Below are positions 3,824 through 55,760 of a stretch of 64,000 nt of DNA, in pieces (the stretch's first letter is position 1; each line of letters starts with the position of its first letter). Under the pieces are notes generated by a model, which made no database searches, was not told where the DNA came from, and saw nothing but the letters and a program-made list of their open reading frames with translations. The DNA is taken from positions 13,275-77,274 of the forward strand of contig JAHFED010000010.1 of NCBI GenBank assembly GCA_023248635.1, written 5' to 3'. This stretch comes from Myxococcales bacterium (GTDB taxonomy: Bacteria > Myxococcota > UBA727 > VGSZ01). The position numbers were made by a program, and so were the translations under genes.

Positions 3824-5368
3824 ATGCTGACGACGGGACCTCTTGCACCTTCCGTCGCCCACACCGAGGGGGTCACCGTCGCCGCGCCAGGCACTGTGTC
3901 GACGGAAGTGCTCGTCATTGGCACCGGGGCCGGGGGCGCGGTTGCTGGCACCGAGCTCGCCAAAGCTGGCAAGAGAGTCCTCTTCCTCGAGGCCGGCGGC
4001 GCCTACGATCGTCGCGACTTTCGCCGGCGCTCGTTGTCGTGGGCGACCACGCACATGTTCGCCGGACGGGGCGCTCAAACCGCCAACGGCGATCCGATGA
4101 TGGTGGTGACGTCGGGGCGGGTGGTGGGTGGTTCGACCGTCTTGAACTCGGGCATCTGCTTTCGACCGCCCCAAGCGCGCCTGCGCGAGTGGGCCGAGCT
4201 CAGCGGCAGCGACCTCTGGCAGCCGGTCAATTTCGACCCCCTCGTCGACGAAATCTGGACGCGCATCGGTGTTACCCCCACCCACGCCGGCATCGGCCGC
4301 CGCAACAACCAGCTCTTTCTCGACGGGCTGCGAAAGCTCGGCGTCGACGCCCACTGGATGGACCGAAACGCCCCAGGCTGCGTCGGCTGCGGCATCTGTC
4401 ACCTCGGTTGTCCGTCAGGGGGCAAGGCCAGCGTCGACAAATCGATCCTGCCCGAGGCCCTCAACCACGGCGCCACGATCCTCACCCGCGCGCGGGCTCA
4501 ATCGATCATCGTCGAAGGAGGGCGGGTCACGGGCGTCCACGCCGTCGTCGTCGACGAGGTCGATGAGAGGCCCACCGGCTCGCTGAAGATCAAGGCCGAC
4601 GTCGTCGTCGTCGCCGGATCGGCCTTGGGTTCGCCGCTCATTCTGCAGAACAGCGGCCTGGGTGGGACAGAGGTTGGCCGACACCTCTCCCTGCACCCCG
4701 GCTTCGGCGTGCTGGGCGAATTCGCCGAGCCCGTGGTGATGTGGGACGGCGTGCCGCAGGGGGCTTGGGCCGACTGTCCCGACGACGATCGGGCCCTGCT
4801 CGAGGTCGCCAATGTCGGACCCGGCGAGCTCTTCGCCATGTTCGGCCGCGCGGGCGATCTCTCGAGCGTGCAACGCCTCGCCCATTTCGCCATGGCGGGG
4901 GCGATGATCAGAGACACCGGCGAAGGCAGCGTGGTCATTGACGACGACGACACCGATCATTTGCGACCCCGCTTGCGGGTCAAGCTCTCGCCGCGCGATC
5001 TCCAGGCCATGCGGGCGGGGGGCAAGACGCTGGTGCGCGCCTACTTCGCCGCCGGGGCGACCCACGTGATCCCGGCCATCGTGGGAACGCGCTTTTGCGC
5101 GAGTGAGTCCGAAGCGTTGGCCGTCGTCGACGAGCTCACCGAGCCCAATCGTCTCTCGCAGGCCTACGCCAGCCATCCCCACGGCACCTGCCGCATGGGT
5201 CCCACAGAGGGGCCCAACAGGGGCGTCGTCGACGTCGCCGGCGCGGTCCATGGCACCGCGGGTCTGTACGTGATGGACGGGTCGGTCTTTCCGAGCACGC
5301 TGGGCATCAATCCCCAGGTGACGATCATGGCGACGGCGTTGGGCCTCGCGCGCCGCCTCCTGCACTGA
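3824..5368 (+). CDS. GMC-family FAD-dependent oxidoreductase (large subunit).
   Basis: N-terminal Rossmann motif VLVIGTGAGGAVAG...LFLEAGG, about 514 aa, with the conserved C-terminal GMC segment (HPHGTCRMG...). It is translationally coupled to the upstream Tat small-subunit gene. Confidence 0.85.
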   Translation: MLTTGPLAPSVAHTEGVTVAAPGTVSTEVLVIGTGAGGAVAGTELAKAGKRVLFLEAGGAYDRRDFRRRSLSWATTHMFAGRGAQTANGDPMMVVTSGRVVGGSTVLNSGICFRPPQARLREWAELSGSDLWQPVNFDPLVDEIWTRIGVTPTHAGIGRRNNQLFLDGLRKLGVDAHWMDRNAPGCVGCGICHLGCPSGGKASVDKSILPEALNHGATILTRARAQSIIVEGGRVTGVHAVVVDEVDERPTGSLKIKADVVVVAGSALGSPLILQNSGLGGTEVGRHLSLHPGFGVLGEFAEPVVMWDGVPQGAWADCPDDDRALLEVANVGPGELFAMFGRAGDLSSVQRLAHFAMAGAMIRDTGEGSVVIDDDDTDHLRPRLRVKLSPRDLQAMRAGGKTLVRAYFAAGATHVIPAIVGTRFCASESEALAVVDELTEPNRLSQAYASHPHGTCRMGPTEGPNRGVVDVAGAVHGTAGLYVMDGSVFPSTLGINPQVTIMATALGLARRLLH

Positions 5369-5448
5369 TCCGTTCGGGCATCGCGCCCGAGCGCAAGAGG
5401 CCTCGTTGCGCGGCGATGATCGGCTAAACCCGCCGCCCTGAGGTGTTC

Positions 5449-6879
5449 ATGCAGCGACCAACCAGGAAGACCGCGAAGGCCAGCGCGGAGCCTCGCCAGC
5501 GGGTCGCCCACAGGAGCCCATCGACGTCGATGAGCACCGCCAAGAAGAGGCCCGCAGCAGCCAGGGCAACACCGAAGGCTCAGCCTGCTGGGGGTGCAAA
5601 CAAGAGCGCCACAAAGAAGACGACGAAGACGACGAAGACGGCGAAGGCGACGAAAACCAAGGCGAAGAAGGCGACGAAGACGAAGGCGCCGAACCTCCGC
5701 GTGGCCCGCCTCCCCGTCGTCTGGCGTTTCAACACTGGCGTTCAAACCGTGGGCTTGTGGGTCGACGAGCTCGTGTGGGTGGCCAACGACGACGGCAACG
5801 TCTACGCCCTCGACCGCCACGGCGCCTTGGCCAAGCAGATGAAGCTGCCCCAGGGCTCCGCCAGCGTCATCGCCGACGAAGCTTGGAAATACGCGGGCTG
5901 CGAAGATGGCAAGGTCTACGACCTCACCGGTCGGGTCCCGCACGCGATGTACGACGTCGGCCGAGCGAACATCGGTTGGATCGAGGTCTACCGCGGCAAT
6001 CTCTGCGTGGCCGATCTGGCTGGAACCGTGGCGGTCTTCGACGTCGACGGCGACCAACGCTGGAAAAAGAAAGTCAAAGACGGCGGCGAAGGTTGGGTGC
6101 TGCGCGTCGACGGCACGGGCCTGTACCACGGCTGCGAGATCGGGCTGCGCAAGCTCTCGTGGGGGGGCGAGGTGCTGTGGCACAACCGCGGCGTCGACGA
6201 TGTGCGCTTCGCTGTCGACCACGGCGACGCCCTCGCGCTCACCGGTGGCTACGAGAGCGGGGGTGACACCACCCTCTACGTCGTCGAGAAGGCCAGCGGC
6301 AAGACCCGGCAATCGGTGTTGCTGACCAGCGACGGCCCCGGGTTTTGCCCCAACGGAGCCGAAGCGGTGGCCGTGGGCCGCGCCGCCGACGGAGCCACGC
6401 GGCTCTATGTCGCCTGCGGCAACTATCTCTTTGGCTACGACGAAGCGCTGGCGGTCTTGTGGGAGGCCAAGGTCGAAGCTGGACCCATCTGCAACATGCA
6501 GCTCGTCGACGAGACCCTCTTCTACGCCACCTCTGAAGGTGCGGTATGCGCCGTCGACGTCGGCGCGGTGGCCATCGCCCGGGCTTTGACGGGCAAGGTG
6601 AAAAAGGCGCGGGTGAGGCAAGCGCCCAAGGAGCAAGCAGAAGACGGCGGCCTCGAGATCGTCGGTGACGCCGGCGGCGGCGTCGTCGTCGAAGTGATCA
6701 AATTGGGGGGCAAGCTCAAGGTGCGTCCCCTCGGCGGCAAGTTCCGCTCGGACTGGTTTTGCCAGTTCCCCCGCGACCTGCGGGAAGAAGGGGCCCGCTT
6801 CGTCGTCGACGAATTGCGCGAAGCCGCTCAGGGTGGTTTCTACCGCACGCTAGGCGACATCCGTCGATTCCGGCCCTGA
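5449..6879 (+). CDS. PQQ-like beta-propeller repeat protein with a histone-H1-like Lys/Ala/Thr-rich N-terminal tail.
   Basis: About 90 N-terminal residues are KKAT/KTKA-type repeats (AKKATKTKAKKATKTKA). These are followed by repeated G-x-V/L-Y-A-x-D, WxxxG and LYVAxxxG beta-propeller blades. Confidence 0.7.
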   Translation: MQRPTRKTAKASAEPRQRVAHRSPSTSMSTAKKRPAAARATPKAQPAGGANKSATKKTTKTTKTAKATKTKAKKATKTKAPNLRVARLPVVWRFNTGVQTVGLWVDELVWVANDDGNVYALDRHGALAKQMKLPQGSASVIADEAWKYAGCEDGKVYDLTGRVPHAMYDVGRANIGWIEVYRGNLCVADLAGTVAVFDVDGDQRWKKKVKDGGEGWVLRVDGTGLYHGCEIGLRKLSWGGEVLWHNRGVDDVRFAVDHGDALALTGGYESGGDTTLYVVEKASGKTRQSVLLTSDGPGFCPNGAEAVAVGRAADGATRLYVACGNYLFGYDEALAVLWEAKVEAGPICNMQLVDETLFYATSEGAVCAVDVGAVAIARALTGKVKKARVRQAPKEQAEDGGLEIVGDAGGGVVVEVIKLGGKLKVRPLGGKFRSDWFCQFPRDLREEGARFVVDELREAAQGGFYRTLGDIRRFRP

Positions 6880-6890
6880 GCAAAAAAGCC

Positions 6891-8822
6891 TCAGCTCCGA
6901 CGACGACGGCGCAGCAGCCCCGCCAAGAGCGCGAAGGACACCAGGGCGCTGCTCGTGTTGCCGCTGGCACAGGTGGGCCCGCCGGTGGTCTCGAACTCGT
7001 CCTGGAAGGCTTCGCCGTTGCAGACCACCGCCGTGGAGTCGACCTCGCCGTCCTCGAGGATGCCGTTGCCGCCAGTCCCACCGCCGGCGCCGTCGTCGAG
7101 CCCCGACTCCACCACTTGTCCACCTGCGAGACAATCGTCGCCGGCTTCGATGGGTGTCAGCCGCAGCAGTGACGTCAAGCCGCTGCCGCCGGCGGAGCCG
7201 CTGGCGCCGGTGGGTCCCGGTGGCCCCGTTTCGCCCGCGGGTCCGGTGGCGCCGTCCTCGCCGTCATCGCCCGGCGCGCCGTCGTCGCCAGCAGGTCCGG
7301 TGGCGCCGTCGTCTCCGTCGACACCTGGGGCGCCGTCGGCGCCATCGACTCCTGGGGCGCCGTCGTCGCCGTCGACACCCGGGGCGCCGTCGTCTCCGTC
7401 GGCGCCGTTGGAGCCGTTGCTGCCGTTGGTGCCGTTGGAGCCGTTGCTGCCGTTGGTGCCGTTGGTGCCGTTGCTGCCGTTGGTGCCGTCGCAAACGAAG
7501 ACCGTGTCGTCGACCTCGTCGTCGTCGAGCAGGCCGTCGAAGGCCGTGCCGTCGCCGTCGCCGTCGTCGGCGCCGGTGTCGATGGCCTGTCCGCCGGCGG
7601 CGCAATTCGCACCTGGGCCTTCGGTTCGCACGCGTGCGGCAACGGGGGCGCTGATGCCCCCCAGCTCAAAGGAGCCGATGTCGCACCGCTCATCGGCGCG
7701 GAAGCGGCCTCGTTGATCCAGGTCGAAGGCCACGCCAGCGATGTCGTTGCAGCTCCCCGCGTCCACCGCCGGGCTGGCCCCGGGGAGGCGCAAGGTCTGG
7801 GTCGCTCCGCCGTTTTGCGCCAGAGCGCCGAGCTGGGGATCGATCCCCAAGACGTCGCTCGGCAGACCCAGAAAGACCCCCGTTGCCTCGATGAGGTTGA
7901 AGCCCAGGGACACCAGGTCGCGGCCGCCGCCGCCGTCGTCGGGCGTGTCGTTGGCGGCGATGGTGTTCTTCAGGCGAACGTCGGCGGGCCCGCGGCTGAA
8001 GATGCTGCCGCCGCTGACGGCGACGTTGGCGGAGAAGGTGGAGCTGTCGACGTCGGCGGCGTCGCAATTGATGGCTCCGCCCTCGTCGCCGCCGGTGTTT
8101 GCCGAGAAGGTGCTGTTCACCACGTGCAGGGGGGCGACGGTCAAGATCGCGCCGCCGTCAGCAGCGGCGTCGTTGCCGTCGAAGGTGCTGTCGCTCACGA
8201 CGGCAGCTGGCGCCCCGAGCAGAAAGAGGGCCCCACCGTCGTTCGCCGTGTTGTCGCTGAAGGTCGAGCGCACGACGGTCAGCGCGACGTTGGAGCCGCC
8301 GATGGCGCCGCCGTTGTGCGCGTCGTTGTCCTCGAACACGCTGTCAGCGATGACGGCGGTGCCGGAAAGGTTGATGGCGCCGCCGGTGCCACTGCCAGCG
8401 TCGTTGTTGGTGTTGTTGCGAAAAGCGCAGTCCGACACCGTCAGCGATGTCGATGAAATCAGCGCAGCGTCGAGAGCCAGCGAATCCTTCATCTGCAGGG
8501 CCCGAAACGACGTCGCTGGCCCCTGTGCCGACCAGATCGCGTTGGCCCCCTGGCCATCGAGGACGGTCAGCTCCCGGCCGGCGCCCACGACGTCGACGCT
8601 GGTGGTGCTGAGCAGAACGCTGGCGAGCGGGAAGGTGCCGGCAGGCAGCACGATGGTGTCGGTGTCGGGGGCCGCATTGGCGGCGGCGACGGCCTCGCGC
8701 AGCGACAGCACCGCATCATCGGCGACCTCGTCGCTCAGCGTCGTGACCGTGAAGGTCGCGGCCTGGGCCGCCGTGGGGACGACGACGGCAATGCAGACGG
8801 CTCTCAGGACATTGGCGTTCAT
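6891..8822 (-). CDS. Secreted surface protein: signal peptide, CSLREA-type motif, parallel beta-helix repeats, a collagen-like G-X-Y run and a MYXO-CTERM sorting tail.
   Basis: Signal peptide MNANVLRAVCIAVVVPTAAQA. LSLREAV motif near the N-terminus. Many GGA[IL]x / SxFxxN beta-helix repeats. About 34 consecutive Gly-X-Y triplets (GTNGSNG...GAPGVDGDDGAPG...GPPGPTG). C-terminus TCASGNTSSALVSFALLAGLLRRRRRS (Cys, hydrophobic stretch, polybasic tract). Confidence 0.8.
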   Translation of the reverse strand: MNANVLRAVCIAVVVPTAAQAATFTVTTLSDEVADDAVLSLREAVAAANAAPDTDTIVLPAGTFPLASVLLSTTSVDVVGAGRELTVLDGQGANAIWSAQGPATSFRALQMKDSLALDAALISSTSLTVSDCAFRNNTNNDAGSGTGGAINLSGTAVIADSVFEDNDAHNGGAIGGSNVALTVVRSTFSDNTANDGGALFLLGAPAAVVSDSTFDGNDAAADGGAILTVAPLHVVNSTFSANTGGDEGGAINCDAADVDSSTFSANVAVSGGSIFSRGPADVRLKNTIAANDTPDDGGGGRDLVSLGFNLIEATGVFLGLPSDVLGIDPQLGALAQNGGATQTLRLPGASPAVDAGSCNDIAGVAFDLDQRGRFRADERCDIGSFELGGISAPVAARVRTEGPGANCAAGGQAIDTGADDGDGDGTAFDGLLDDDEVDDTVFVCDGTNGSNGTNGTNGSNGSNGTNGSNGSNGADGDDGAPGVDGDDGAPGVDGADGAPGVDGDDGATGPAGDDGAPGDDGEDGATGPAGETGPPGPTGASGSAGGSGLTSLLRLTPIEAGDDCLAGGQVVESGLDDGAGGGTGGNGILEDGEVDSTAVVCNGEAFQDEFETTGGPTCASGNTSSALVSFALLAGLLRRRRRS

Positions 8823-8864
8823 GGGCGCTCCAGACGAATCAAAGAACCAGGCGAGAGGCGACGA

Positions 8865-10632: not shown

Positions 10633-10700
10633 AATTCATCGCCGCCAGGCGATGAACCTGTAGACAATTCACCGACACGCGAAGCCTGGTCGGTGGACTC
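10633..10700. repeat. Copy (inverted orientation) of the ~65-bp double-hairpin intergenic repeat also found at 16620..16749 and 52636..52706.
   Basis: The reverse complement reads ...caccgaccaggcttcgcgtgtcggtgaattgtctacaggttcatcgcctggcggcgatgaattc. Apart from a few substitutions in the first stem it is the same as the units in the lepA-lepB spacer. It carries two internal inverted repeats (CACCGAC/GTCGGTG and TTCATCGCC/GGCGATGAA). Confidence 0.8.
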
Positions 10701-12127: not shown

Positions 12128-12254
12128 GGCCGAGCTTAGGTCGAGCCGGACGCGGAGGGGACGGGACCCATGAGCGGCCGCCGCAGAGCGTGGTAGTGAC
12201 CCGTCCTTCGAGACGCGCCAGCGTCTCGAACAGATGAATTCGCAGGAGCGCGCC

Positions 12255-16458: not shown

Positions 16459-16614
16459 TTCAAGACGCGCCAGCGTCTTGAACATCCAAGCTTCAAGACG
16501 CGCCAGCGTCTTGAACATCCAAGCTTCAAGACGCGCCAGCGTCTTGAACATCCAAGCTTCAAGACGCGCCAGCGTCTTGAACATCCAAGCTTCAAGACGC
16601 TGGCGCGTCTTCAG
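16459..16614. repeat. Tandem array (4 perfect copies and 1 variant) of a 33-bp unit. Each unit holds a perfect 10-bp-stem hairpin, TTCAAGACGC-gcca-GCGTCTTGAA.
   Basis: ttcaagacgcgccagcgtcttgaacatccaagc repeated at 16459, 16492, 16525 and 16558, with a variant at 16591 (loop tggc). The 9-bp spacers are identical, so this is not CRISPR. Confidence 0.9.
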
Positions 16615-16619
16615 TGCCG

Positions 16620-16749
16620 ATTCACCGACAGCGCTTCGCGTGTCGGTGAACTGTCAACAGGTTCATCGCCTGGCGGCGATGAATTCACCAACAGCGCTTC
16701 GCGTGTCGGTGAATTGTCTACAGGTTCATCGCCTGGCGGCGATGAATTG
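16620..16749. repeat. Two tandem copies of the ~65-bp double-hairpin repeat (family shared with 10633..10700 and 52636..52706).
   Basis: ATTCACCGACAgcgcttcgcgTGTCGGTGAATtgtctacaggTTCATCGCCtgGCGGCGATGAAtt occurs twice, with a/t polymorphisms. Conserved pseudo-peptides (ALRVSVNCLQVHRLAAMN) appear in spurious ORFs at all three loci. Confidence 0.85.
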
Positions 16750-16777
16750 GCCGCCCGGCCTGAGGGCAGAGAATTCC

Positions 16778-16800
16778 TCAAGACGCTGGCGCGTCTTGAA
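16778..16800. repeat. Additional solitary hairpin of the TCAAGACGC...GCGTCTTGA type, 12 bp upstream of the lepB start.
   Basis: tcaagacgctggcgcgtcttgaa is the same stem as the 33-bp array units with loop tggc. Confidence 0.8.
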
Positions 16801-20355: not shown

Positions 20356-21519
20356 ATGTTCAAGCTCAGCGAGACCCACGACGAAATCCGCAAGACCGCC
20401 CGCAAGCTCGCCGATGACCTGCTCGCTCCCCTGGCCGCGCACCACGACCGCGAGCACCTCTATCCGGCGGAGCAGGTCAAAGCGTTGGCCAAGCTGGGCT
20501 TCATGGGCATCGCCGTCAAAGAAGACGAGGGCGGCGCCGGCGTCGACAACCTGGCCTACGCGATCGCCATGGAAGAGGTTTCGCGGGGTTGTGCGTCGAC
20601 GGGTGTGGTCATGAGCGTCAACAATTCGCTCTATTGCGATCCCGTCGCCAAATTCGCCACGGCGGAGCAGAAAAAGACGTGGCTCGCCCCCTTTGCCAGC
20701 GGCGCGCGCTTGGGTTGCTTTGCCCTCTCTGAGCCCGGCAACGGTTCCGACGCCGGCGCCGCCAGCTGCACCGCTTCCGTCGTCGACGACCCCAAGTTGG
20801 GCTCGTGCTGGGAGCTCAACGGCACCAAGGCATGGATCACCAACGGCTGCGAAGCAAACGCGGCTCTCGTCTTTGCGTCGACGGACAAGGCGGCGAAGCA
20901 CAAGGGCATCTCGGCCTTCCTCGTGGCCATGCCCACGCCGGGGCTCTCGCTGGGCAAGAAAGAAGACAAGCTCGGCATTCGGGCGTCGTCGACGTGCAAC
21001 CTGATCTTCGAGGGCTGTCGCATCCCCAAGGGCAACCTCTTGGGCGAGGCCGGCGCTGGTTTCAAGATCGCGATGGGGACTCTCGACGGCGGCCGCATCG
21101 GGATCGCGGCCCAGGCCTTGGGCATCGCGCAGGCCGCTCTCGAGGCGTCGGTGGCCTACAGCAAAGAGCGTCTCGCCTTCGGGGCGCCCATCGAGAAGCT
21201 CCAGGCCATCCAGTTCAAGATCGCAGACATGGCCCTGAGGTTGGAATCCGCGCGCTTGCTCACCTGGCGTGCTGCGACCCTCAAAGATGCGGGCGTCAAA
21301 TACACGAAAGAAGCCGCAATGGCGAAACTGGCGGCGTCGGAGACGGCGACGTTCGTGGCCCATCAAGCCATCCAGATTTTCGGCGGCAATGGCTATGTGA
21401 CTGAGTATCCAGTGGAACGCCACTATCGCGACGCCCGCATCACTGAGATCTACGAAGGAACCAGCGAGATCCAGCGGCTCGTCATCGGCACCAACGTCCT
21501 CAAGGAAATCGGTGGCTGA
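20356..21519 (+). CDS. Acyl-CoA dehydrogenase (short/branched-chain type).
   Basis: 387 aa with an ACAD N-terminal/middle/C-terminal signature, including the catalytic-base region [21 protein letters not shown]. Confidence 0.9.
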
Positions 21520-21549
21520 AATTCCGCTCGGCGACGTGCGGCGCGTCGA

Positions 21550-21738
21550 TCAGCGACCCATCCGGAAACGGAGCAGGGCGCCGCGGTTCTGTTGCCGCGC
21601 TTGTTCGGTCGGCGCGACTGCGTCGACGGCGACGTCGAGCATCTCTAGCGCGGCCTCCTGACGGGCGGCCTGCAACGTGGCCCTCACGGCATCCCGGCGC
21701 GCCTTCAGAGCTGCAAAGGGAAGTCCGGCAGCCGTCAT
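21550..21738 (-). CDS. Small hypothetical protein (62 aa), translationally coupled by an ATGA overlap to the upstream ORF.
   Basis: ATG overlaps the stop of 21735..22175 (ATATGA). Acceptable GC3 bias. No recognisable family. Confidence 0.35.
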   Translation of the reverse strand: MTAAGLPFAALKARRDAVRATLQAARQEAALEMLDVAVDAVAPTEQARQQNRGALLRFRMGR

Positions 21739-22175
21739 ATGAGGCCTCGATCGACGCCGCTGCTGAGCCGACGGATGTCTGCAGGGCTGAGGCCCGGTTG
21801 GATGGACGCCGTGGCCTGTTGATTCTCTGCGACGACCAAGATCTGCATGATTCCCCCGTAGCAGCTTGGCCTTTTTCGGATTTCGGCCCAGCCGGCGTTC
21901 GCGGGGTCGTCGGGATGCTGGATTTGATCGACGACGGCTTGGAGGACGGCATCATTGTTGGTCCAAGGCGCTTTCGTCGCTGGATCGCGGTCGTACTCCT
22001 GCACCAGGGGCTCGCCCCGTTCCGCCAGCTGCGCGAGCGCCTCCTGGATTTTTGCCACGCTGGCCGCCGCTGCGGCCTGCACCTTCGGGTTCCGCATCCC
22101 ATCGAGCAGCACCTGATCCTTGGTTTGCTGCACACCGTTGCGCCTGGCGATCAACTTCCCGAACTGAATGGACAC
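21735..22175 (-). CDS. Hypothetical protein (146 aa, GTG start).
   Basis: Balanced protein-like composition (MSIQFGKLIARRNGVQQTKDQVLLDGMRNPKVQ...). Its codon bias is somewhat weaker than neighbouring genes. The opposite-strand ORF 21798..22319 looks like a shadow ORF. Confidence 0.45.
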   Translation of the reverse strand: MSIQFGKLIARRNGVQQTKDQVLLDGMRNPKVQAAAAASVAKIQEALAQLAERGEPLVQEYDRDPATKAPWTNNDAVLQAVVDQIQHPDDPANAGWAEIRKRPSCYGGIMQILVVAENQQATASIQPGLSPADIRRLSSGVDRGLI

Positions 22176-22293
22176 AGGGGGCCCCCTCGTCCCGCGATTC
22201 TGGGGACGAAGAGGCTAATGCACGCTCGACGCCAAGAGTGCTCCGGCAGTCGAAGGCCACGCGGCGGCGGTGATGCCTGCGGATGCGCAACCG

Positions 22294-22314
22294 TTGCGCA
22301 TGCTGCTCGCGCGG
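22294..22314. promoter_or_regulatory. Perfect 9-bp inverted repeat ATGCGCAAC-cg-GTTGCGCAT in the ~300-bp leader upstream of the NRPS gene; candidate operator for a dimeric regulator.
   Basis: gatgcgcaaccgttgcgcatgc is a seen palindrome. It lies within the region between 22176 and the likely NRPS start at 22474. Confidence 0.35.
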
Positions 22315-22473
22315 ATTGAGAAAGCGGGCGCTGCGGTGCACAGGGCGATGGCGACGGGCTCAAGGCGAGCGACACGTTGGGCGGGCCCCGTCCGCTTCAG
22401 CAGGGCCCCGCTCAGCGCACAGCGCTTCCGGCTTTGCGCCGTACCAGCGACGCGATGTGATAGCCAAGGCTGG

Positions 22474-25400
22474 ATGTCGTCGTCGTCGGTGCCGCCAAAG
22501 TCCTTTCCGCTCACTTCCGTCGAGCGGCGCTTTTGGATGCTCCACAACCTCCATCCCCATTCCCCCGTGGCCAACATCGGGCGTGTGGTCGAGCTGCGGG
22601 GCGAGCTCTATGTCGACGACCTCGCGCGGGCTTTTGCCATCGTTGCCCAAAACCCGGTGCTCCGAATGAGGGTGCGCGAGGAGCGCGGGGAACCACGGGG
22701 CGTGCTCGGCGATCCCCCCCGCCTGACCATCGACGCCGACGTCGCCGACGCCGACGCCGTCGCCCGCGCTGCCGACGAAATCGTCAAGGCTCCCTACGAT
22801 CTGGCGCGCGGGCCGTTGTGTCGCGCGCGCCTGCTGCGCACCGCCGACGACGAGCTCCATGTGTTGGTGCTCGGCGCCCACCATTTGATCCTCGATGGCT
22901 GGGGGCTGTCGCGCTCGCTGCCGCGGGCCATCGCGCGGGCCATGCGCGGCGAGAACATGAGCTTCGGCGACGAAGATGCTCTCGACGACGACACCTGGAT
23001 CGAGGCCCGCTTCGAGCGCGCGCCCGACGACCCCCCGGCAGACGCCCGCGCCATCGACGCCGCCTGGTGGAGCTCGGCACTGAAAGATGCCCAGCCCCTC
23101 ACCTTGCCTCTGGTGCGCCCGCCTCCGCCCCGGTCCACCGGCCGCGCCTGGGACGTCGAGGTCGCGGTTCCGCCGGGGATCTATGCCAAGGCCAAGGCGC
23201 TGGCGACGTCGATCGGTGCTCGCACCGTGCACGTGTTTCTGGCGGCCTTCGTCACCGAGCTCTCGCGCGCCGGTCGCATCCACGACGTGCTCTTGGGGAC
23301 CACGAGCGCGGCGCGGCCGGGCAGCGACCCCGACAACCACGAGATGGGCTGCTTCGTTCGCACCAAGGCCCTGCGCGTCGCCTTCGACGATCACGCGCCT
23401 TTCGTCGACGTCGTGCGGGCCTGCCAGACCGCCGTGCGCCAAAGCCTGGATCACCCCGCGTTCGACGCCGAAGAGCTGCAGCAGATCCAGGCGCCCGCCA
23501 TCGGCGCCCTGTTCAACTTCATCCCCTTCTCGGCCTTCGACGGCGTGTTGCCCGATCTCACGGTCAAGGCGGGGCGCATCATCGCCGGGGGCACCGCGTT
23601 TCCGATCTCCATGACCGTCGACGCCCACGGCGACCCCCGCCTCGTCGTCGAAGTCGACGCCGACCTCTTCGACGAGGGCTTCGCGCTGCGTTTTGCCGAG
23701 CGCATCAACGCCGTGCTGGCCGCGGGGGTCGCAAACCCGGCCCTGCCCTTCACGCGCCTGAGCCGACTCGGCCCCGTCGACGACGACGCGTGCGCCCAGA
23801 ACGCTCCCACCGCCCCTGAGATTGCCCCCGTGGTCGGTGGTGAGGTCACCGCCCTGCTCGAGCGTGATCTCGCCGGTGCTGAGCCGGCGCTGGTGCTCGT
23901 GCGGGATCCCCTCGATCCCGCCAGCGACGTCGCCGTCTCGCGGAAGGCACTGCTCGAGCGGGCCCAGGCCATCGCGGCGTCACTCGTCAAAGACCACGTC
24001 GACGGCGACGACGTTGCTTTCGTGGGGGTGCAGTGCCTCGATCCCCTGCGCACCGTCGAAGCGATCTTGGGCGTGCTCTTCGCCGGCTTTGCCTATGTCC
24101 CCATCGATCCGCGCGCGCCCCCCCTGCGTGCCGCCGCCATCGTCGAACAAGCGAAGGTGAGCACCGTCCTCGACGACGAAGCCGCCACGATCCGCGCCGC
24201 CATCCCCATCACGGCGGGTCGCAAGAGGCGGACGCCGCGGCCCTCCGATCCCGCCTATGCCATCTTCACCTCAGGCAGCACCGGCGCTCCCAAGGGCGTC
24301 GTCATCTCTCACGGCGCCCTGGTGTCGCAGCTGCAGGCCCGCGAGGGCCTCGGCTTTCCCCACGTCAAACGCTCCTGCTTGCTCGCTCCCTTCTTCTTCG
24401 ATGGCTCCATCGAGACGCTGTTTTGGACCCTGACCACCGGCGGCACCCTGCACCTGCTGGGAGAAGACGCGCGCCGCGATCCCCTCGCCATCCGGCGCAC
24501 CCTGGCCCGACGCCGCATCACCTACACCTCGGCGGTGCCCGCGCTGTGGGGCGCGATGTTGGATGCAGCGACGTCGACGGAGGAGTCCCTCGATGCCCTG
24601 GGCTTCGTCATCGTCGGCGGCGAAAAGCTCACGCCCCAGCTCATCGAAAAGCACAACACGCACACCTCGGCGCGGCTGGTGAACGAATACGGACCAACCG
24701 AAACGACGGTGTTTTCCACGGCGTGGACCGCGCCTTCGCCGGGCGAGCCCACACCCGAGCGCGTGCCCATCGGCCGCTCGGCCCCCCATGTGCGCTGCGC
24801 CGTCGTCGACGACAACCTGGAGCCCGTGCCCTGTCTCGAGGCCGGCGAGCTCGTCGTCAGCGGTGCGGGCTTGGCCGATGGGTACTTGAATGCGCCGGAG
24901 CAGACCGCGGCCGCCTTCGTCGTCCACCAAGGCGTGCGTCTGTACAAGACGGGCGATCTGGTGCGCCTGTGGCCTGACGGCGACCTCGAGTGGCTGGCGC
25001 GCAAAGACGAGCAGGTGAAGCTGCGCGGCGTTCGCGTCGAGCCAGGCGAAGTCGAAGCCGCCCTGCTGGCCGAGGGCTGCGACGAAGCCGCCGTCCTCGT
25101 CGACGGACAACATTTGTTGGCCTGGGTCTCACCAGCCTCCTGCGACGAAGCAGAGCTGATTGCGGCCCTCTTGCGGCGGCTGCCCGAGGCCATGGTCCCC
25201 GCGCGCATCATGGCCCTGGCGGTGTTGCCAAAGACCGCCAACGACAAAATCGACAAGCGCAACCTGCCAAAGATCGCCGTCGACGACGTCGTCACGCCCG
25301 CTGCCACCGCTCTCGAGCGCGCCATCGCTGCCATCTGGGAAGACGTGCTCGATCAAAGCCCGATCTCGGTGACCAAGAGCTTCTTTGCCTACGGTGGACA

Positions 25401-26370
25401 CTCCCTGAAGGCAGCCATCGTGGTGCGTCGTCTGAGCGATCACCTCGGCAAAGAGGTGCCGCTCTCGGCCCTGATGTTTGCCCGCACCGTGCGGGAGCTG
25501 GCCCGCAGCCTCGAGCAGCAGGCCCACAGCGGGTCGTCGTCGGCGTCGTCGCTGCTGCTCCCGTTGAGCGCTCGGGCCCAGAGCGCTCCTCGGGTGGTGT
25601 TCCTGCCGGGCATTGGGGGCCACGTCTTCACCTTCGCCGGCATCGCCGATCGCATGACCAACGTCGCCGCTGGCCTGCGCTCTTACGGGAGCGAGCCGGG
25701 GGAGGAGCCCCTGGCCTCGGTCGAAGAGCTGGCCAGCAAGAACCTCGATGAGCTCGACAAGGCTGGGGTCGCCGACGACGTCGTCTTCGCCGGCTACTCT
25801 TTCGGCGGCCTGGTCGCCTACGAGATGGCGTTGCAGCGGACTGCGCTGGGACGTCCTCCTCGTCATCTGGTCATTTTCGACACCTTGGCGCCGGGCTATC
25901 CAAAGAAGCTGCCCTTCTTCCAACGCGCCCGCCTGCACGCCGAGAGCTTGGTGCGCGCGGATTGGGAAGGACGGCGGGCCTACCTTCAGGGCCGCGTCGA
26001 CAGCGTGAAAGAGAAGCTCAACTTCAAGCTGCAGCGCGCCGAGGCCTTCAAGGACGCCTTCGCCCTCGATGACGAAGAGCTGCGGGCGCTAGGCCCTGTG
26101 CAGCGCGCCCAGCTCGAGAAGCTGGCGGGTACCTCGACCTTGGCCCACCACCGCTACTGGCCGCGGGCGTCGACGTCGGTGCCCATGACCCTTTTTGCGG
26201 CAGAGTCGGGTTTTGACTGGGCAGCCACCGTCATGGACGATCCCCTGCTCGGGTGGAGCGCCTGGGGCACGGGGTCGCTGCGGCGCGTGGTGCTCAAAGG
26301 CGACCACCTGCGCCTCTTCGTCGACGAGAACCTGCTCACGGCCGCACGCGGACTCGACGCCATCGCCTGA
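22474..26370 (+). CDS. Non-ribosomal peptide synthetase, single module C-A-T-TE.
   Basis: Condensation-domain motif HHLILDGWG. Adenylation cores A3 (AIFTSGSTGAPKGV), A7 (YKTGDL), A8 (ARKDEQVKLRGVRVEPGEVE) and A10 (KTANDKIDKR). PCP motif FFAYGGHSLKA. Thioesterase motif GYSFGG. The start is set where the C domain begins (MSSSSVPPKSFPLTSVERRFWML); the upstream in-frame ATG at 22270 is possible. Confidence 0.9.
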   Translation: MSSSSVPPKSFPLTSVERRFWMLHNLHPHSPVANIGRVVELRGELYVDDLARAFAIVAQNPVLRMRVREERGEPRGVLGDPPRLTIDADVADADAVARAADEIVKAPYDLARGPLCRARLLRTADDELHVLVLGAHHLILDGWGLSRSLPRAIARAMRGENMSFGDEDALDDDTWIEARFERAPDDPPADARAIDAAWWSSALKDAQPLTLPLVRPPPPRSTGRAWDVEVAVPPGIYAKAKALATSIGARTVHVFLAAFVTELSRAGRIHDVLLGTTSAARPGSDPDNHEMGCFVRTKALRVAFDDHAPFVDVVRACQTAVRQSLDHPAFDAEELQQIQAPAIGALFNFIPFSAFDGVLPDLTVKAGRIIAGGTAFPISMTVDAHGDPRLVVEVDADLFDEGFALRFAERINAVLAAGVANPALPFTRLSRLGPVDDDACAQNAPTAPEIAPVVGGEVTALLERDLAGAEPALVLVRDPLDPASDVAVSRKALLERAQAIAASLVKDHVDGDDVAFVGVQCLDPLRTVEAILGVLFAGFAYVPIDPRAPPLRAAAIVEQAKVSTVLDDEAATIRAAIPITAGRKRRTPRPSDPAYAIFTSGSTGAPKGVVISHGALVSQLQAREGLGFPHVKRSCLLAPFFFDGSIETLFWTLTTGGTLHLLGEDARRDPLAIRRTLARRRITYTSAVPALWGAMLDAATSTEESLDALGFVIVGGEKLTPQLIEKHNTHTSARLVNEYGPTETTVFSTAWTAPSPGEPTPERVPIGRSAPHVRCAVVDDNLEPVPCLEAGELVVSGAGLADGYLNAPEQTAAAFVVHQGVRLYKTGDLVRLWPDGDLEWLARKDEQVKLRGVRVEPGEVEAALLAEGCDEAAVLVDGQHLLAWVSPASCDEAELIAALLRRLPEAMVPARIMALAVLPKTANDKIDKRNLPKIAVDDVVTPAATALERAIAAIWEDVLDQSPISVTKSFFAYGGHSLKAAIVVRRLSDHLGKEVPLSALMFARTVRELARSLEQQAHSGSSSASSLLLPLSARAQSAPRVVFLPGIGGHVFTFAGIADRMTNVAAGLRSYGSEPGEEPLASVEELASKNLDELDKAGVADDVVFAGYSFGGLVAYEMALQRTALGRPPRHLVIFDTLAPGYPKKLPFFQRARLHAESLVRADWEGRRAYLQGRVDSVKEKLNFKLQRAEAFKDAFALDDEELRALGPVQRAQLEKLAGTSTLAHHRYWPRASTSVPMTLFAAESGFDWAATVMDDPLLGWSAWGTGSLRRVVLKGDHLRLFVDENLLTAARGLDAIA

Positions 26371-26639: not shown

Positions 26640-29600
26640 TCAGCGCGGGTTGGCGCAACAGCGGTAACCAAGGGTCGACGTCGTCGTCTTCGCCGACACC
26701 AGGTGGCGCGCCGAGCAACGCGACGCGAAATCAGGGTGATCGGCGGAGCCGCCCTTGGCGATTCTCTGGCCGCCGTGGGAGTCGGCGACCCATTCCTCGG
26801 CGTTGCCCGACATCATGTAGAGCTTGAAGCCAGACTTGCACTTCTTGAAATCGACGGGAGCAGCCAGGGGACGGGGTTTGCCGTCGCTGTCTTCGGTGTT
26901 GCAAGTGTCTGCGTCGTAGGTGTTGCCATAGGGGAAGCGCGACGACGACGGCCCCTTGCAGGCTCGCTCCCATTCTTGCTCGGTGCACAAGCGCCGACCC
27001 GCGCGCTCGCAGGCGTTCTTGGCGGCGGTCCACGAGACACCGGTCGTGGGCAGGGTGCTCTTGCCGTTGGGCGCCTCGTAGTGCTCGATGCAGAAGGCTT
27101 TGACCTCGACCGACGTCGCCTCGGCTTCTCCAAAATTGCGCATGGGATCGGACTGCGCGGAGCCGAAGGTGAAGGCGCCGGCTTCGATCTTGACGGTGCC
27201 GCCTGGGCATTCTCCCGACGACAAAGCGAGCTCGGGGGCCTTGGGATCCGGTGTCGGGCCTTTGGGATCCACTTTGGGATCGACTTTGGGATCGACCCTG
27301 GGATCGACCTTGGGATCGACTCTGGGATCGGGCGCCTTGACCAAGGCAGCCTCGCGTTCGCGCCGTTGCATTTCTTCGAGGGCGCGGGCTGCGGCGTCGC
27401 GCGTCTCTTTGGCGTCGTCGACGCGCGGCTGCACGGCCACCGTCCCCGCGTCGACCACAACGGCGACGGCGGGAACCGGGGCGGGCGGCTGCGGCACCAC
27501 CTCCCCCGGTTGCAGGGTCACGCCGGCAACGTCTTCGGCGTCTTCGCCGGATTGCTTCCACAGGTGGCGAAGAGCGAGCAGCAGCAGCAGCACAGCGAAG
27601 CCGACGCCGGCCGCGATCAGCACGGGGTTGGTGCCCTGCTTGGGCCGACGCGGTGGCGTGACCGGACGCAGGGGGACAAAAGGCTGCACCGCCATGACGT
27701 CGTCGTCGTCGCCGCCGCGTGCCCTGGGGCGTCGGGCGCTGGTCAAGGTCTCCTGCACGTCGTCGTCGTCGTTGCTGCGCCTGGGCAGTGCCGGCGGCAG
27801 CTCCTCGGCTTGTCCAGAGCCCGTGCCAGCGGTGCGGGTGAGCGCTTCGCGCAGGGCGACGTCGTCGACGTGGTCGGCCCGCGGATGGAGCTTGAGCGCC
27901 GTCAAGGCATCGTGAATGGCCAGGCCATCGTCGGAGCTCAGGGGCGGTGGCGGCATCGGCAGCGACGCGGGTGGTGGCTCTTCGGAGGTCAAACCGAGCA
28001 CCTCGGCGGCTCGGGGCCCCGCCCCCGCCAGCTCGGCGGTCTCTTCGAGGGAGTCCTCGCTCGACATCGCGGGGGCGTGGGGGCGCGCGACCGCTCGCGG
28101 TGGCGTCGGGAGCCCGGGGTTGTCGCTGGGGGCCGCCGCCGGAGCGCGCGGAGGGTTCGGGTTGGGGCTCAGGCTCCCCGCCGCGATCTGTCGGTTCTCG
28201 ACGGTGTCGTCGTCCCCAGGCAAGGGGAAATGCGAGCGCTCGAGGGGATCGCCTTCGTCGTCGGGCAGCGGCGGCGGGATCAGGTTGTCGTCGACCTCCT
28301 TGGAGTAGAGGGCTTCGAGCAGGGCGTCGCCGCCGGGGGGCCGGGCACCGGAATAGACCAGCCCGGGGCGCTCGCCCTGCATCGGCCGGCCGCCGGGGCT
28401 GGTGTCGACGTCGTCTTCGCCAGAGGCACGGGTGGTTGGATCGTCGGCGGTGTCGTCGGGGTTGAGGCCGCTGACCGACATCAAGCGCCGCGCCGCCAAC
28501 TCCATGTCGGTCTCGGCAGGCGCGGGCGGGCTCGGACGCTTGGTCTGCATCACCGCGCTCTCGAGCAGCATGACCTGGCTCTGCCCAATCTCGAGCAGCG
28601 AGGGATCCTCTTCCTCCGACGACGCCGACAACGGCGGTGCCAGGGCTTGCGCGTTGGTCTGCTGGGGCGGTGGCCCGGGATGGGGAAATGCAGCTGCGAC
28701 GACGACGACCCCTGCTTCTCTGCCCTCGAGTCGCGCCCCGGCCACCGGCTCCACCAGCAGGGCGCCTGGTGGCAGGGGAGAGGACGCCTTCGCGGCCGGC
28801 GTGGGCTTGCCGAGGCTTGGTGGCTCCTTGGTCGCGGCGGGGGGCGGCAGCGGCTGTCCGCCAAGGGCAGCGAGGGCTCCTTCGACCTCCTTGGCCAGGT
28901 CGCCGGCTTTGGTGAAGCGCCCATCGGGGTGCTCGGCGACGGCGCGTCGAATCAAGCCGTCGAGGCGGGTGGGGAGCTGCTCGAGGGCCGCGGTGAAGGC
29001 GCGGGAGAAGTGTCCTTCGAAAACGATGCCCGTCAGCATCTCGGCGAAGATCACCCCCAGCGAGTAGACGTCGACGCGGCCGTCGATGGTCTGTGCTTCC
29101 ACGCGCAACTCGGGGGCGATGTAGGGAAAGGCCTTGCTCCTGCTCTTGGCGATGCCCAGGAAGGGCTTGAGCGGCAGGCCTTTGACGAGGCTGAAGTCCG
29201 TGACCTTGAGCAGGTCAGGCAGGACGACGACGTTTTCTGGCTTGAGGTCGCCGTGCCAGGTCTGTTTGTGGGCGTAGTCGAGAGCAGCACCCAGCTGCTG
29301 GAAGATCGGCGCGAGCTCTTCGGGCGAGAAAGCCTGGCCCTTGTCGTGCCGGAGCCGAATGATCTTCCGCAGCGTGAGCCCCTCGAGGAGCTTCATGGTG
29401 AAGAAGCGGCGGTTGGGCTGCAGGTGCTGCCCTTCGTCGTAGATGCGGACGATGTTGGGATGCTGCAGCTTGCGCGCGGATTTAATGGCCTTGGCGAACT
29501 GCTTTTGCTCTTCGTCGGTCTGCAGCAGGTTGGGCGAGATGCCCTTGAGGGCAATGTCGACGTCGATCTCGGTGTCGCGGGCGCGGTAGACGGCGCCGAC

Positions 29601-29804
29601 CCCGCCCTGGCCGATGAGGTCGAGGACGCGATAGCGGCCCGCGATCAGCTCTCCCGGCGAAAAGATCAGCGCCTGCTGCTGCCCCGTCGTCGGCCGCTTC
29701 TGCGGTCCGATGTTCTTGCCGGCCTTGTCGACGAGCTCTTGCCCGCAGACCGTGCACTTCTGTGCTTCATCGGAGTTGTAGGAGCCGCAGCGGAAGCAAA
29801 GCAT
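26640..29804 (-). CDS. Receptor-like Ser/Thr (pseudo)kinase: Zn-ribbon, then a Hanks kinase with altered catalytic motifs, a Pro-rich linker, one TM helix, a (VDPK)n repeat and an FGE-sulfatase (SUMF1-like) domain.
   Basis: MLCFRCGSYNSDEAQKCTVCG ribbon. Kinase motifs GQGGVGAVYRA and IALKGI, but HGDLKPENV (HRD changed to HGD) and VTDFSLV (DFG changed to DFS). TM helix NPVLIAAGVGFAVLLLLLALRHLW. DPRVDPKVDPRVDPKVDPKVDPKG encoded by 12-bp DNA tandem repeats. C-terminal FGE motifs (GNAEEWV, LGYRCCANPR). Confidence 0.8.
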   Translation of the reverse strand: MLCFRCGSYNSDEAQKCTVCGQELVDKAGKNIGPQKRPTTGQQQALIFSPGELIAGRYRVLDLIGQGGVGAVYRARDTEIDVDIALKGISPNLLQTDEEQKQFAKAIKSARKLQHPNIVRIYDEGQHLQPNRRFFTMKLLEGLTLRKIIRLRHDKGQAFSPEELAPIFQQLGAALDYAHKQTWHGDLKPENVVVLPDLLKVTDFSLVKGLPLKPFLGIAKSRSKAFPYIAPELRVEAQTIDGRVDVYSLGVIFAEMLTGIVFEGHFSRAFTAALEQLPTRLDGLIRRAVAEHPDGRFTKAGDLAKEVEGALAALGGQPLPPPAATKEPPSLGKPTPAAKASSPLPPGALLVEPVAGARLEGREAGVVVVAAAFPHPGPPPQQTNAQALAPPLSASSEEEDPSLLEIGQSQVMLLESAVMQTKRPSPPAPAETDMELAARRLMSVSGLNPDDTADDPTTRASGEDDVDTSPGGRPMQGERPGLVYSGARPPGGDALLEALYSKEVDDNLIPPPLPDDEGDPLERSHFPLPGDDDTVENRQIAAGSLSPNPNPPRAPAAAPSDNPGLPTPPRAVARPHAPAMSSEDSLEETAELAGAGPRAAEVLGLTSEEPPPASLPMPPPPLSSDDGLAIHDALTALKLHPRADHVDDVALREALTRTAGTGSGQAEELPPALPRRSNDDDDVQETLTSARRPRARGGDDDDVMAVQPFVPLRPVTPPRRPKQGTNPVLIAAGVGFAVLLLLLALRHLWKQSGEDAEDVAGVTLQPGEVVPQPPAPVPAVAVVVDAGTVAVQPRVDDAKETRDAAARALEEMQRREREAALVKAPDPRVDPKVDPRVDPKVDPKVDPKGPTPDPKAPELALSSGECPGGTVKIEAGAFTFGSAQSDPMRNFGEAEATSVEVKAFCIEHYEAPNGKSTLPTTGVSWTAAKNACERAGRRLCTEQEWERACKGPSSSRFPYGNTYDADTCNTEDSDGKPRPLAAPVDFKKCKSGFKLYMMSGNAEEWVADSHGGQRIAKGGSADHPDFASRCSARHLVSAKTTTSTLGYRCCANPR
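27262..27330. repeat. Six tandem 12-bp repeats (ttgggatcgacy) inside the kinase-FGE gene, encoding the (VDPK/R)n periplasmic linker.
   Basis: tttgggatccactttgggatcgactttgggatcgaccctgggatcgaccttgggatcgactctgggatcg. Confidence 0.8.
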
Positions 29805-30075
29805 TGACGTCGACGACCCGCGTTGGAGGTGGGGCTGCCATAGCTCAACGATCTGCGATGACAAACGGCCTGTGGCGCACGCCGCGCGCTTTCTTTCGCA
29901 TCAGGATGCGCTTCGCGCAGCTCCTCCGGCCCGGCCTCGGCCCAGATGGGCAGCCCCGGATGGGTTGACAGAAGGTGAGGTCTGTAAACTCGCACGCAGC
30001 GCGCGGACGTCGTGAGCCTTCACGTTCTGCTGTCCAGACGCTGGCGCGTCGCGAAACGTCAGCTGCGGGCCACCG

Positions 30076-49782: not shown

Positions 49783-51179
49783 GCGGGCGCGCCGATCAGT
49801 GGGTCGCGGATCAGCTCTGGGCTGAAGATTTGGCCATGGCCCTCGTCGACGCCGCTCGGAAGGTGGGGGCCGCGGCTTGCGATGCGACGGTGGGCCTGTC
49901 TGCCAGCTTGCAAGCGTCTGCACGCGACGGCGCGGTCGAAGACGTCACCCGCAGCCAAAGTCGCTCCGCAGCGTTGCGCGTGATCGTCGACGGCAAGCTG
50001 GGCTTGGCGACGTCGTCGGACGCTCCCACCACCGCCGCTGACATTGAAGAGCTGGCCCGGACGGCGGTGGGAATCGCGGCGTTGTCGTCGTCGTCGCCGC
50101 ACAATGTCGTGTTGCCGGGTGCCCAAATGACGGCCAACGAGGTGCGCGAAGCCGGCGAGGCCCTGCGCACCTGGGACGACGACACGGCTCTGCTCGACCC
50201 CGCCTGGCCCGTGGAGCGGGCGTTGCTCACCGAGCGGGTGGTACGGGGTCACGAGGGCGTCTCTGGCGTGCGCGACGTTTCAGCGGGCGTGCGGCGCGGG
50301 CTCTTCGCCTTGGCGACGTCGACGGGCTTTCTGGGCTCGATGCGGGGCACCACCGCCCAGCTCAGCTGCTCCGCCGTCGTCGAAGATGGCAGCAAGAAGC
50401 AGATCGAGTCCTGGTGGTCCCAAGCCCGCGCGATGAAGGGGGTGCAAGACGCCGTCGTCGTCGCCGACCTTGCTGCGCGCCGGGCCTTGGCGCGCCGGGG
50501 AGCGCGTCGGGTGCCCTCGCAGTCGATGCCGGTCATCTTCGATCCCAACATGACCCGCGCCTTCTTTGGCGGCGTGTTGGCGGTGGTGAGCGGCGAGGCC
50601 GTGGCCCGCAAGCAATCCTGGCTCGCCGACGCCGTGGGCGCAAAGGTGATGCCCGCGGGTCTGGTGCTCGTCGACGATCCCCTGCTGCGGGGCGGCTTTG
50701 GCTCTCGGGTGTTCGACGGCGAAGGCCAGGCGGCCGAGAAACGCGTCATCGTCGACGACGGCGGCCGCCTCACGGGCTTCTTGCTCGACGGCCGCTCGGC
50801 CGCTCGTCTCGGCTTGCCCAACACAGGACAGGCCGCGCGGGGGTCGACGTCGCTGCCCCACCCCGCCCCGACCAACACGACGCTGATGGGGGGGAGTGGC
50901 GATCTCGCTGCGATTGTGGGCGACACCGCCAACGGTCTGTTGGTGACCAAGCTGCTCGGGCGCGGCGCCGACGCCACCACCGGCGACCTCTCGCGCGGCG
51001 CGGCCGGTTTCTTCGTCAAAGACGGCGCCATCGCCTTTCCCGTCGAAGACCTCACCATCGCGGGCAATGCGCGAGAGATGTTGCTGGCCCTCGATCGGGT
51101 AGGCGCCGACGTCGACGAACGCTCCTCGTTGCGGGTGCCGAGCGTGCGCTTTGCGGCTCTGTCGGTGGGGGGCACATGA
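49779..51179 (+). CDS. pmbA: Metalloprotease PmbA/TldE.
   Basis: TldD/PmbA-family paralog without HExxH. ATGA overlap with tldD. Confidence 0.85.
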   Translation: MSGRADQWVADQLWAEDLAMALVDAARKVGAAACDATVGLSASLQASARDGAVEDVTRSQSRSAALRVIVDGKLGLATSSDAPTTAADIEELARTAVGIAALSSSSPHNVVLPGAQMTANEVREAGEALRTWDDDTALLDPAWPVERALLTERVVRGHEGVSGVRDVSAGVRRGLFALATSTGFLGSMRGTTAQLSCSAVVEDGSKKQIESWWSQARAMKGVQDAVVVADLAARRALARRGARRVPSQSMPVIFDPNMTRAFFGGVLAVVSGEAVARKQSWLADAVGAKVMPAGLVLVDDPLLRGGFGSRVFDGEGQAAEKRVIVDDGGRLTGFLLDGRSAARLGLPNTGQAARGSTSLPHPAPTNTTLMGGSGDLAAIVGDTANGLLVTKLLGRGADATTGDLSRGAAGFFVKDGAIAFPVEDLTIAGNAREMLLALDRVGADVDERSSLRVPSVRFAALSVGGT

Positions 51180-53520: not shown

Positions 53521-53605
53521 AGCGGGCTCGCCCTGCTCCCAAGCAGGGATGTCACGCCAAGGACCCAGCGACGTGGCTTTTGCGGCCTCGTGCTAAGGCG
53601 GGGGC

Positions 53606-55756: not shown

Positions 55757-55760
55757 GCCC

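Follow-up and report, generated by a model that had tools for sequence, protein, structure and literature searches.

A stand-alone C-A-T-TE nonribosomal peptide synthetase module of probable lysine-like specificity in Myxococcota

We analysed a stretch of 64,000 nucleotides from a Myxococcales bacterium (assembly GCA_023248635.1, contig JAHFED010000010.1, positions 13,275 to 77,274 of the forward strand), referred to here as the window and supplying all coordinates below unless another locus is named. It contains, at 22474..26370 on the plus strand (stop codon included), a gene for a nonribosomal peptide synthetase (NRPS) of 1298 amino acids with condensation (C), adenylation (A), peptidyl carrier (T, or PCP) and thioesterase (TE) domains. 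The protein has every defining feature of an NRPS termination module and is an uncharacterised member of a small family of a well-known enzyme kind, a family made up entirely of lone C-A-T-TE proteins. The gene is vertically inherited within housekeeping DNA and does not lie in a biosynthetic island. Our tentative view is that it encodes a functional, self-contained termination module, which would use a probably lysine-like substrate and an acyl donor supplied in trans and release an N-acyl amino acid. Orphan NRPS genes of a single module are no rarity and the domain plan is a textbook one, and the gene itself is therefore unsurprising; what makes it mildly useful is that it belongs to a compact, clade-restricted family whose invariant code, of a basic-amino-acid-like type, matches no published one.

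Domain content and predicted substrate

All four domains, as detected with Pfam, are carried by a single long open reading frame (ORF) that spans 22270..26370 on the plus strand in the ORF list of the window. The preliminary description of this DNA had let the feature begin near 22176. We place the true start of the NRPS neither there nor at 22270, but at the ATG at 22474, because the orthologue P0002 opens with an identical MSSSS, because DNA homology to its locus L001, the closest relative with long context, begins just about 30 nt 5' of this codon, and because the in-frame stretch 22270-22473 has a third-codon-position G+C content (GC3) of 0.735, against 0.855 in the gene. Amino acid positions are counted from this ATG.

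The C domain (residues 11-431, 22504..23766, plus strand like the other domains; PF00668, E = 3e-39) has its active site, HHLILDG, at residues 136-142 (22879-22899), and H136, H137, D141 and G142 are invariant in the 18 orthologues described below. The A domain (residues 485-925, 23926..25248; PF00501 and TIGR01733) is resolved by Pfam into AMP-binding (residues 485-805) and AMP-binding_C (residues 859-925), and it passes the amino-acid-adenylation model TIGR01733 of NCBIfam with 335 bits against a cut-off of 317. Its motifs A3 (AYAIFTSGSTGAPKGV), A5 (NEYGPTE), A7 (YKTGD), A8 (RKDEQVKLRGVRVEPGEVE) and A10 (PKTANDKIDK) were all found. In the PCP (residues 950-1011, 25321..25506; PF00550) the phosphopantetheine-attachment serine is Ser977, within GGHSL (25393-25407), and G974-L978 are invariant across the family alignment. 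The TE domain (residues 1040-1283, 25591..26322; Pfam) has the catalytic triad required of a type I thioesterase, namely S1109 (in GYSFG, 25792-25806), D1136 and H1278. Thus the single C-A-T-TE module with intact motifs and about 1.3k residues that had been described from the letters alone is confirmed, all the named signatures having been located and the Asp and His of the TE added to them. The protein begins about 10 residues ahead of the C domain and finishes with the TE, and has no N-terminal docking region. Judged by its sequence it is a complete thiotemplate module, predicted to be equipped to adenylate, tether, condense and release.

Using the A4, A5 and A10 motifs as anchors, we read the ten specificity positions of the A domain as D643, G644, E647, S686, I713, G715, E738, V746, F747 and K925, i.e. 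DGESIGEVFK; the spacing of 43 residues between D643 and S686 equals that between D235 and T278 of GrsA. The same ten residues are present in all 18 orthologues and in the metagenomic sequence L092, and a more distant C-A-T-TE relative (L095) has DGESIGEVYK. Among published lysine codes are those of BacB-M1 (DAESIGSV) and of a pyoverdine lysine module (DGEDHGTV), both tabulated in PMC3207962. The first eight residues, DGESIGEV, are identical to BacB-M1 at six of eight positions, which makes it the nearest published code, and to the pyoverdine module at five of eight. A literature search on the code DGESIGEV found nothing relevant. The presence of D235 and K517 indicates an alpha-amino acid substrate, and a basic side chain is favoured because acidic residues occupy pocket positions 239 and 322 and because the nearest published code is a lysine code. 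The extraction and comparison of the code, proposed in the preliminary description, thus yielded a code that is invariant in the family and has a close, rather than an exact, counterpart, and the A domain probably loads a basic, lysine-like alpha-amino acid.

The orthologous family and its recurrent neighbour

The absence of tailoring or partner NRPS and polyketide synthase (PKS) genes next to the module, noted earlier from the sequence, was upheld over the whole 64 kb. Practically all ORFs called with confidence in the window were scanned against Pfam, which revealed no second NRPS or PKS, tailoring gene, carrier protein, acyl-AMP ligase, phosphopantetheinyl transferase or cluster-type transporter, and a motif scan of its six frames revealed no MbtH-like protein. 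In 15 related gene neighbourhoods, too, there was no partner NRPS or PKS, carrier protein or MbtH.

A search of 5.8 billion proteins returned a family of 18 clusters at 49-100% identity, after which there is a sharp fall to generic multi-module NRPSs at about 30%; in a library clustered at 50%, the top matches included a single representative of the family. The 18 members are 1271-1380 amino acids long, all are C-A-T-TE proteins, and all come from metagenomes or metagenome-assembled genomes (MAGs) and are Myxococcota-like. The catalytic residues are invariant throughout their alignment. Apart from this family, four metagenome loci (L097, L099, L100 and L102) encode other NRPSs with the same unusual type of TE, at 37-41% identity. 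These have Cys-type or near-Cys codes (DLYNLSLIWK in L102, and DLFDMSLIWK or DLYDMSLIWK in L097, L099 and L100), and all but L102 have a recognisable HHxxxDG C domain. Several small NRPSs thus seem to use this TE subfamily.

The sole recurrent partner of the NRPS is a gene of the glycerophosphodiester phosphodiesterase (GDPD) family, encoding about 300 amino acids, which lies directly downstream on the same strand in nine lineages (P0006, P0008, P0009, P0011, P0014, P0015, P0016, L092 and L093; the loci with this arrangement are L003/L091, L086, L088, L089, L090, L092, L093, L172 and the P0009 contig). Three of these loci have a GDPD start that overlaps the stop of the NRPS, by 4 bp in L086 and L172 and by 17 bp in the P0009 contig. 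The upstream genes vary among the GDPD-linked lineages, being purSQLF in one group and Peptidase_MA_2 in another. The GDPD is a UgpQ-like glycerophosphodiester phosphodiesterase (NF006989, 136 bits) that also matches, secondarily, a model of lysophosphatidylglycerol phospholipase D; it retains the visible family motifs HRG...PENT, ELD, HDD..DRTT and NVELK and has a conserved N-terminal extension of about 60 residues, with the pattern MS..L.R....WS.P.DP.LR. An operon of this composition in most relatives suggests a connection with the turnover of glycerophospholipid head groups. Literature on clusters that combine an NRPS with a glycerophosphodiester phosphodiesterase was searched for, and nothing relevant was found.

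The two-gene arrangement is not that of the window, where the gene downstream of the NRPS is a convergent kinase, and P0012, P0018 and L095 also have no GDPD beside the NRPS. In a neighbour-joining tree rooted with L095 (a simple distance tree, with no support values), the clade of the window, which comprises the window gene, P0002 and P0003 with the sisters P0007 and P0012, is nested among GDPD-linked lineages. The linkage was therefore most likely lost or moved in the lineage of the window. Beside P0012 (locus L171), the gene convergent on the NRPS, at 5326-6126 of that locus on the minus strand, belongs to the Exo_endo_phos family, which includes phosphodiesterases; its adjacency may be a coincidence.

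Donor, product and inheritance

In the reading that we tentatively prefer, the A domain would activate a basic, lysine-like alpha-amino acid and load it onto the PCP, and the N-terminal C domain would acylate the PCP-bound amino acid with a thioester donor supplied in trans. This donor would most likely be a fatty or 3-hydroxy-fatty acyl-CoA or acyl-acyl carrier protein (acyl-ACP) out of primary metabolism, and hydrolysis or cyclisation by the TE would set free the N-acyl amino acid, a lipo-amino acid. A donor from outside the protein is indicated because the enzyme lacks an N-terminal docking region and its gene is never accompanied by one for a carrier or synthetase; since none is ever encoded nearby, acyl-CoA or acyl-ACP of primary metabolism is the likeliest source. 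This is in line with the earlier suggestion of a lone C-starting, TE-ending module that needs an external donor, as no partner was seen in the window or in the 15 neighbourhoods. An acyl-CoA dehydrogenase gene directly upstream in two lineages is a weak hint toward a lipid-like acyl group, and so, equally weakly, is the phospholipid-related partner in relatives.

Among characterised enzymes, pyreudione synthetase Pys uses proline, draws its acyl donor from primary metabolism and has a TE that performs a Dieckmann cyclisation. In Pseudomonas fluorescens HKI0770 this stand-alone C-A-T-TE NRPS constitutes the whole biosynthetic locus (PMC8719888). It is a precedent for a stand-alone C-A-T-TE enzyme and is likened to the window NRPS by description; it has another code and comes from another lineage. 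AB3403 (ABBFA_003403) of Acinetobacter baumannii is part of a multi-gene cluster, and its similarity to the window protein is distant only (C domain 1e-6, A domain 9e-49; PDB 4zxh/4zxi).

Several observations weigh against the preferred reading. The specificity code is identical to no published code, and a glutamate at position 322 is also typical of asparagine codes. The adjacency of the acyl-CoA dehydrogenase is confined to two close relatives, and searches by tblastn with five GDPD partners as queries found no GDPD in the window, L001, L085 or L087. No product has been observed from any family member. Moreover, the C domain occupies the N-terminal (starter) position, though its sequence is nearer to elongation C domains than to those of RzmA and SrfA-A: its best matches in the PDB are of the elongation type (DhbF, 5u89, at 5e-25, with Txo1, FscG and LgrA; range 5e-25 to 1e-13), and it is weaker against the solved lipo-initiation C domains of RzmA (1e-8) and SrfA-A (2e-5). 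Against aryl-accepting C domains it gave 1e-9 (EntF) and 5e-4 (VibH). A full-library search with the C domain ranked giant multi-module NRPSs at the top by summed scores and did not separate the subtype. Because the C domain resembles the elongation type, the idea of an acyl donor gains no direct support from its subtype.

For the same reason, one should also consider an iterative, self-condensing module, an alternative that we find unlikely but that this resemblance keeps alive. Here the C domain of one protomer would accept the aminoacyl-PCP of a second one as its donor, giving a Lys-Lys dipeptide or a short homo-oligomer that the TE hydrolyses or cyclises, e.g. to a diketopiperazine. A C domain most like ordinary peptide-bond-forming elongation C domains is what such a module would need, and its own carrier domain is the only one ever encoded with it. 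There is a precedent in the rhabdopeptide/xenortide NRPSs, one-module enzymes which act iteratively in trans, the C domain receiving its donor from another copy or subunit (PMC6195595). These systems use docking domains and have no TE, whereas the window NRPS is the opposite on both points, with docking regions at neither terminus and a TE present, and we do not count it among the iterative modules of the rhabdopeptide/xenortide type. Iterative condensation would also leave the GDPD partner unexplained.

Quite unlikely, in our opinion, is an aryl-capped siderophore synthetase of the EntF/MxcG type, for which distant genes would make 2,3-dihydroxybenzoate (DHB) and attach it to an aryl carrier protein. 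From there the C domain would move DHB to PCP-bound lysine, and the TE would free a catecholate resembling azotochelin or myxochelin acid. The C-A-T-TE architecture is that of EntF, the code is lysine-like, and MxcG, a myxobacterial, Lys-activating single module, also uses lysine. The best equivalog-type NCBIfam matches of the protein are likewise MxcG (353 bits, residues 10-1024) and EntF (258 bits), and for the C domain alone the MxcG model comes second with 50.7 bits, after a generic NRPS/PKS model with 92 bits. However, the full-length scores are far under the curated cut-offs of 2300 bits (MxcG) and 2400 bits (EntF), and the 15 neighbourhoods contain no isochorismate synthase or isochorismatase, DHB-AMP ligase, aryl carrier, TonB receptor or exporter. 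The similarity of the C domain to EntF and VibH is far lower than that to C domains of the elongation type, and the recurrent GDPD plays no part in catecholate synthesis. EntF itself (enterobactin synthetase component F, PDB 5ja1/5t3d) activates serine and is encoded with entABCE, whereas here the code is lysine-like and no such genes are near; with no DHB or aryl-carrier genes in the window or the neighbourhoods, the protein cannot be classed as an aryl-capping synthetase of this kind. Nor is it an MxcG. The model of that myxochelin synthetase (NF038078) is the best of the equivalog type for the C-A-T part, but MxcG has a terminal reductase domain where the window NRPS has a TE, and mxcCDEF-like neighbours are absent.

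A third alternative, which we consider improbable, involves the GDPD partner. The module might pass an aminoacyl or acyl-aminoacyl group to a glycerol or glycerophosphate acceptor through its TE or C domain, with the GDPD of the relatives making or recycling the acceptor, which would amount to a tRNA-independent route to amino-acid-decorated glycerolipids or head groups. The NRPS-GDPD operon recurs in nine lineages while all other neighbours vary, and the GDPD, with its family motifs, its UgpQ-like character, its secondary lysophosphatidylglycerol phospholipase D match and its conserved 60-residue N-terminal extension, fits such a role. On the other hand, the argument is one of gene context alone, the window's own lineage has no adjacent GDPD, and the pairing could equally stem from co-regulation, e.g. 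under phosphate limitation. We also know of no documented NRPS chemistry of this kind.

It is a long shot that the NRPS and the UgpQ-like GDPD form an undescribed two-enzyme system of uncultured Myxococcota that joins thiotemplate activation to glycerophospholipid metabolism, the window gene having become unlinked from its partner. If this were true, the pair could act as a phosphate-sparing switch, in which the GDPD recovers phosphate from deacylated phospholipids and the NRPS makes a phosphorus-free lysine lipid, or, alternatively, could attach a basic amino acid to a glycerol-phosphate head group independently of tRNA. The pairing in relatives, not found in the window, is the only element here that could possibly lead to something new, and it offers a concrete two-gene target from a lineage without a cultured representative.

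As for the origin of the gene, the preliminary description had seen more A/T-ending codons than in the neighbouring genes and had taken this as a hint of horizontal acquisition. There is no such excess, since the GC3 of the NRPS falls within the range of 14 neighbouring genes (0.82-0.88), and its 600-nt slices have values of 0.815-0.90. Compared with the L001 orthologue, to which it is 82% identical, the gene has a nonsynonymous divergence (dN) of 0.113 and a synonymous divergence (dS) of 0.665 (dN/dS 0.17), and the adjoining acyl-CoA dehydrogenase gene has a dS of 0.726 against the same relative; because these dS values are similar, the two genes diverged together. By domain, dN/dS is 0.17 (C), 0.20 (A), 0.25 (T) and 0.10 (TE), so that purifying selection acts on each of the four. 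In L001 the gene order SDR-Golvesin-LepA-signal peptidase-DivIVA-kinase-acyl-CoA dehydrogenase-NRPS-kinase/FGE is kept; in L087 PEGA and RecG, which in the window are encoded 6 kb downstream, lie directly upstream of the NRPS, and in L086 the DivIVA-kinase pair is 8 kb away. The nearest named relatives of the LepA of the window are MAGs of uncultured 'Deltaproteobacteria/Myxococcota'. Thus typical codons, a dS matching that of the neighbour and conserved synteny argue against the hint of horizontal acquisition. That the gene is a decaying relic, or was recently acquired from a foreign source and has no role in its host, as its isolation from any cluster and the first impression of atypical codons might have suggested, is highly improbable, given catalytic residues that are invariant in 18 orthologues with no inactivating substitution in the core motifs, a dN/dS of 0.10-0.25 in each domain, typical GC3, and synteny and dS in line with neighbouring housekeeping genes. 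Restriction to one clade, the invariant code, vertical inheritance and the coupling to GDPD in most members together suggest that the product is physiological, e.g. a lipid for membranes or signalling, and not an antibiotic.

The upstream insert and other features of the window

The acyl-CoA dehydrogenase gene (20356..21519, plus strand; Pfam) belongs to the context of the NRPS and is not a shown partner. Between its stop and the start of the NRPS there are about 955 bp in the window and 70 bp in L001. Alignments with L001 attribute the difference to a lineage-specific insert of about 920 bp (21520..22443), which extends from the acyl-CoA dehydrogenase stop to the conserved 30 nt or so before the NRPS start and has no counterpart in that relative. 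If there is foreign-looking DNA near the NRPS at all, it is the insert rather than the NRPS gene itself.

The two coupled ORFs of unknown kind that had been described just upstream lie within the insert. The coupling holds, as the start of the 62-aa ORF (21550..21738, GC3 0.75) overlaps the stop of the 146-aa ORF (21735..22175, GC3 0.76, under the local norm) in an ATGA, and neither ORF has a match in Pfam or NCBIfam; both are on the minus strand, however, and thus divergent from the NRPS. The 146-aa ORF matched only itself among the 5.8 billion proteins. The local GC content of 21001-22000 is 0.638.

A long leader bearing a palindrome had also been counted as part of the feature. A perfect 9-bp inverted repeat does exist in the divergent intergenic region, at 22283..22301, 11 positions away from where it had been put and with a 1-nt spacer instead of 'cg' (ATGCGCAAC-C-GTTGCGCAT). 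Perfect palindromes with 9-bp arms and a spacer of up to 4 nt occur 12 times in the window, against 4.8 expected from first-order Markov simulations (Markov-1), with nine of the 12 belonging to an unrelated repeat family around 16.4-16.8 kb and the other three, including the one at 22283-22301, amounting to chance level. It is missing from the relatives because the whole insert is missing there. The 298-nt leader between the divergent ORF and the ATG folds no better than shuffled sequences (z = +1.41), has no credible Rfam family (one chance-level match, E = 0.39) and has no sigma-70 promoter or intrinsic terminator consensus. With a chance-level frequency and a position in non-conserved DNA, the palindrome was rejected as unsupported in the role of a regulatory site, and the leader, inside an insert that L001 lacks, is not a conserved regulatory element.

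The repeat family around 16.4-16.8 kb occupies 16459-16800, between lepA and the signal-peptidase gene, and comprises 4.3 copies of a perfect tandem repeat whose 33-bp units are 100% identical and each contain a hairpin with a 10-bp stem, TTCAAGACGCGCCAGCGTCTTGAA. Next come two copies of a 63-bp repeat with a second palindrome, TTCATCGCCTGGCGGCGATGAA, and a further copy of the first type. Related palindromes occur singly in two other intergenic spots, at 10635-10656 and 12208-12229, and the whole set looks like a family of REP-like palindromic elements.

Downstream of the NRPS, and convergent with it as had been reported, Pfam places a gene for a Ser/Thr kinase with a C-terminal FGE-sulfatase domain (26640..29864, minus strand). 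This arrangement is kept in the three closest lineages, being the same in L001 and L085. The G+C content of the window is 62-73% per 1-kb block, and a third-position GC screen yields clear gene calls. Other genes of the window, by Pfam, encode an SDR, LepA, a signal peptidase, DivIVA, several Ser/Thr kinases and acyl-CoA dehydrogenases, as well as PEGA, RecG, GlnE, S1, an M3 peptidase, a hybrid histidine kinase and cytochrome c assembly proteins. At 53597-57311 two adjoining paralogous DUF4140/DUF4139 genes, whose ORFs overlap by about 170 nt, are followed by a hybrid histidine kinase/response regulator. Two further proteins are unusual in bacteria: one with collagen triple-helix repeats and a DUF7151 domain, encoded at 6891-8864 on the minus strand, and one of 741 amino acids with a retroviral-type aspartyl protease domain, encoded at 50414-52639.

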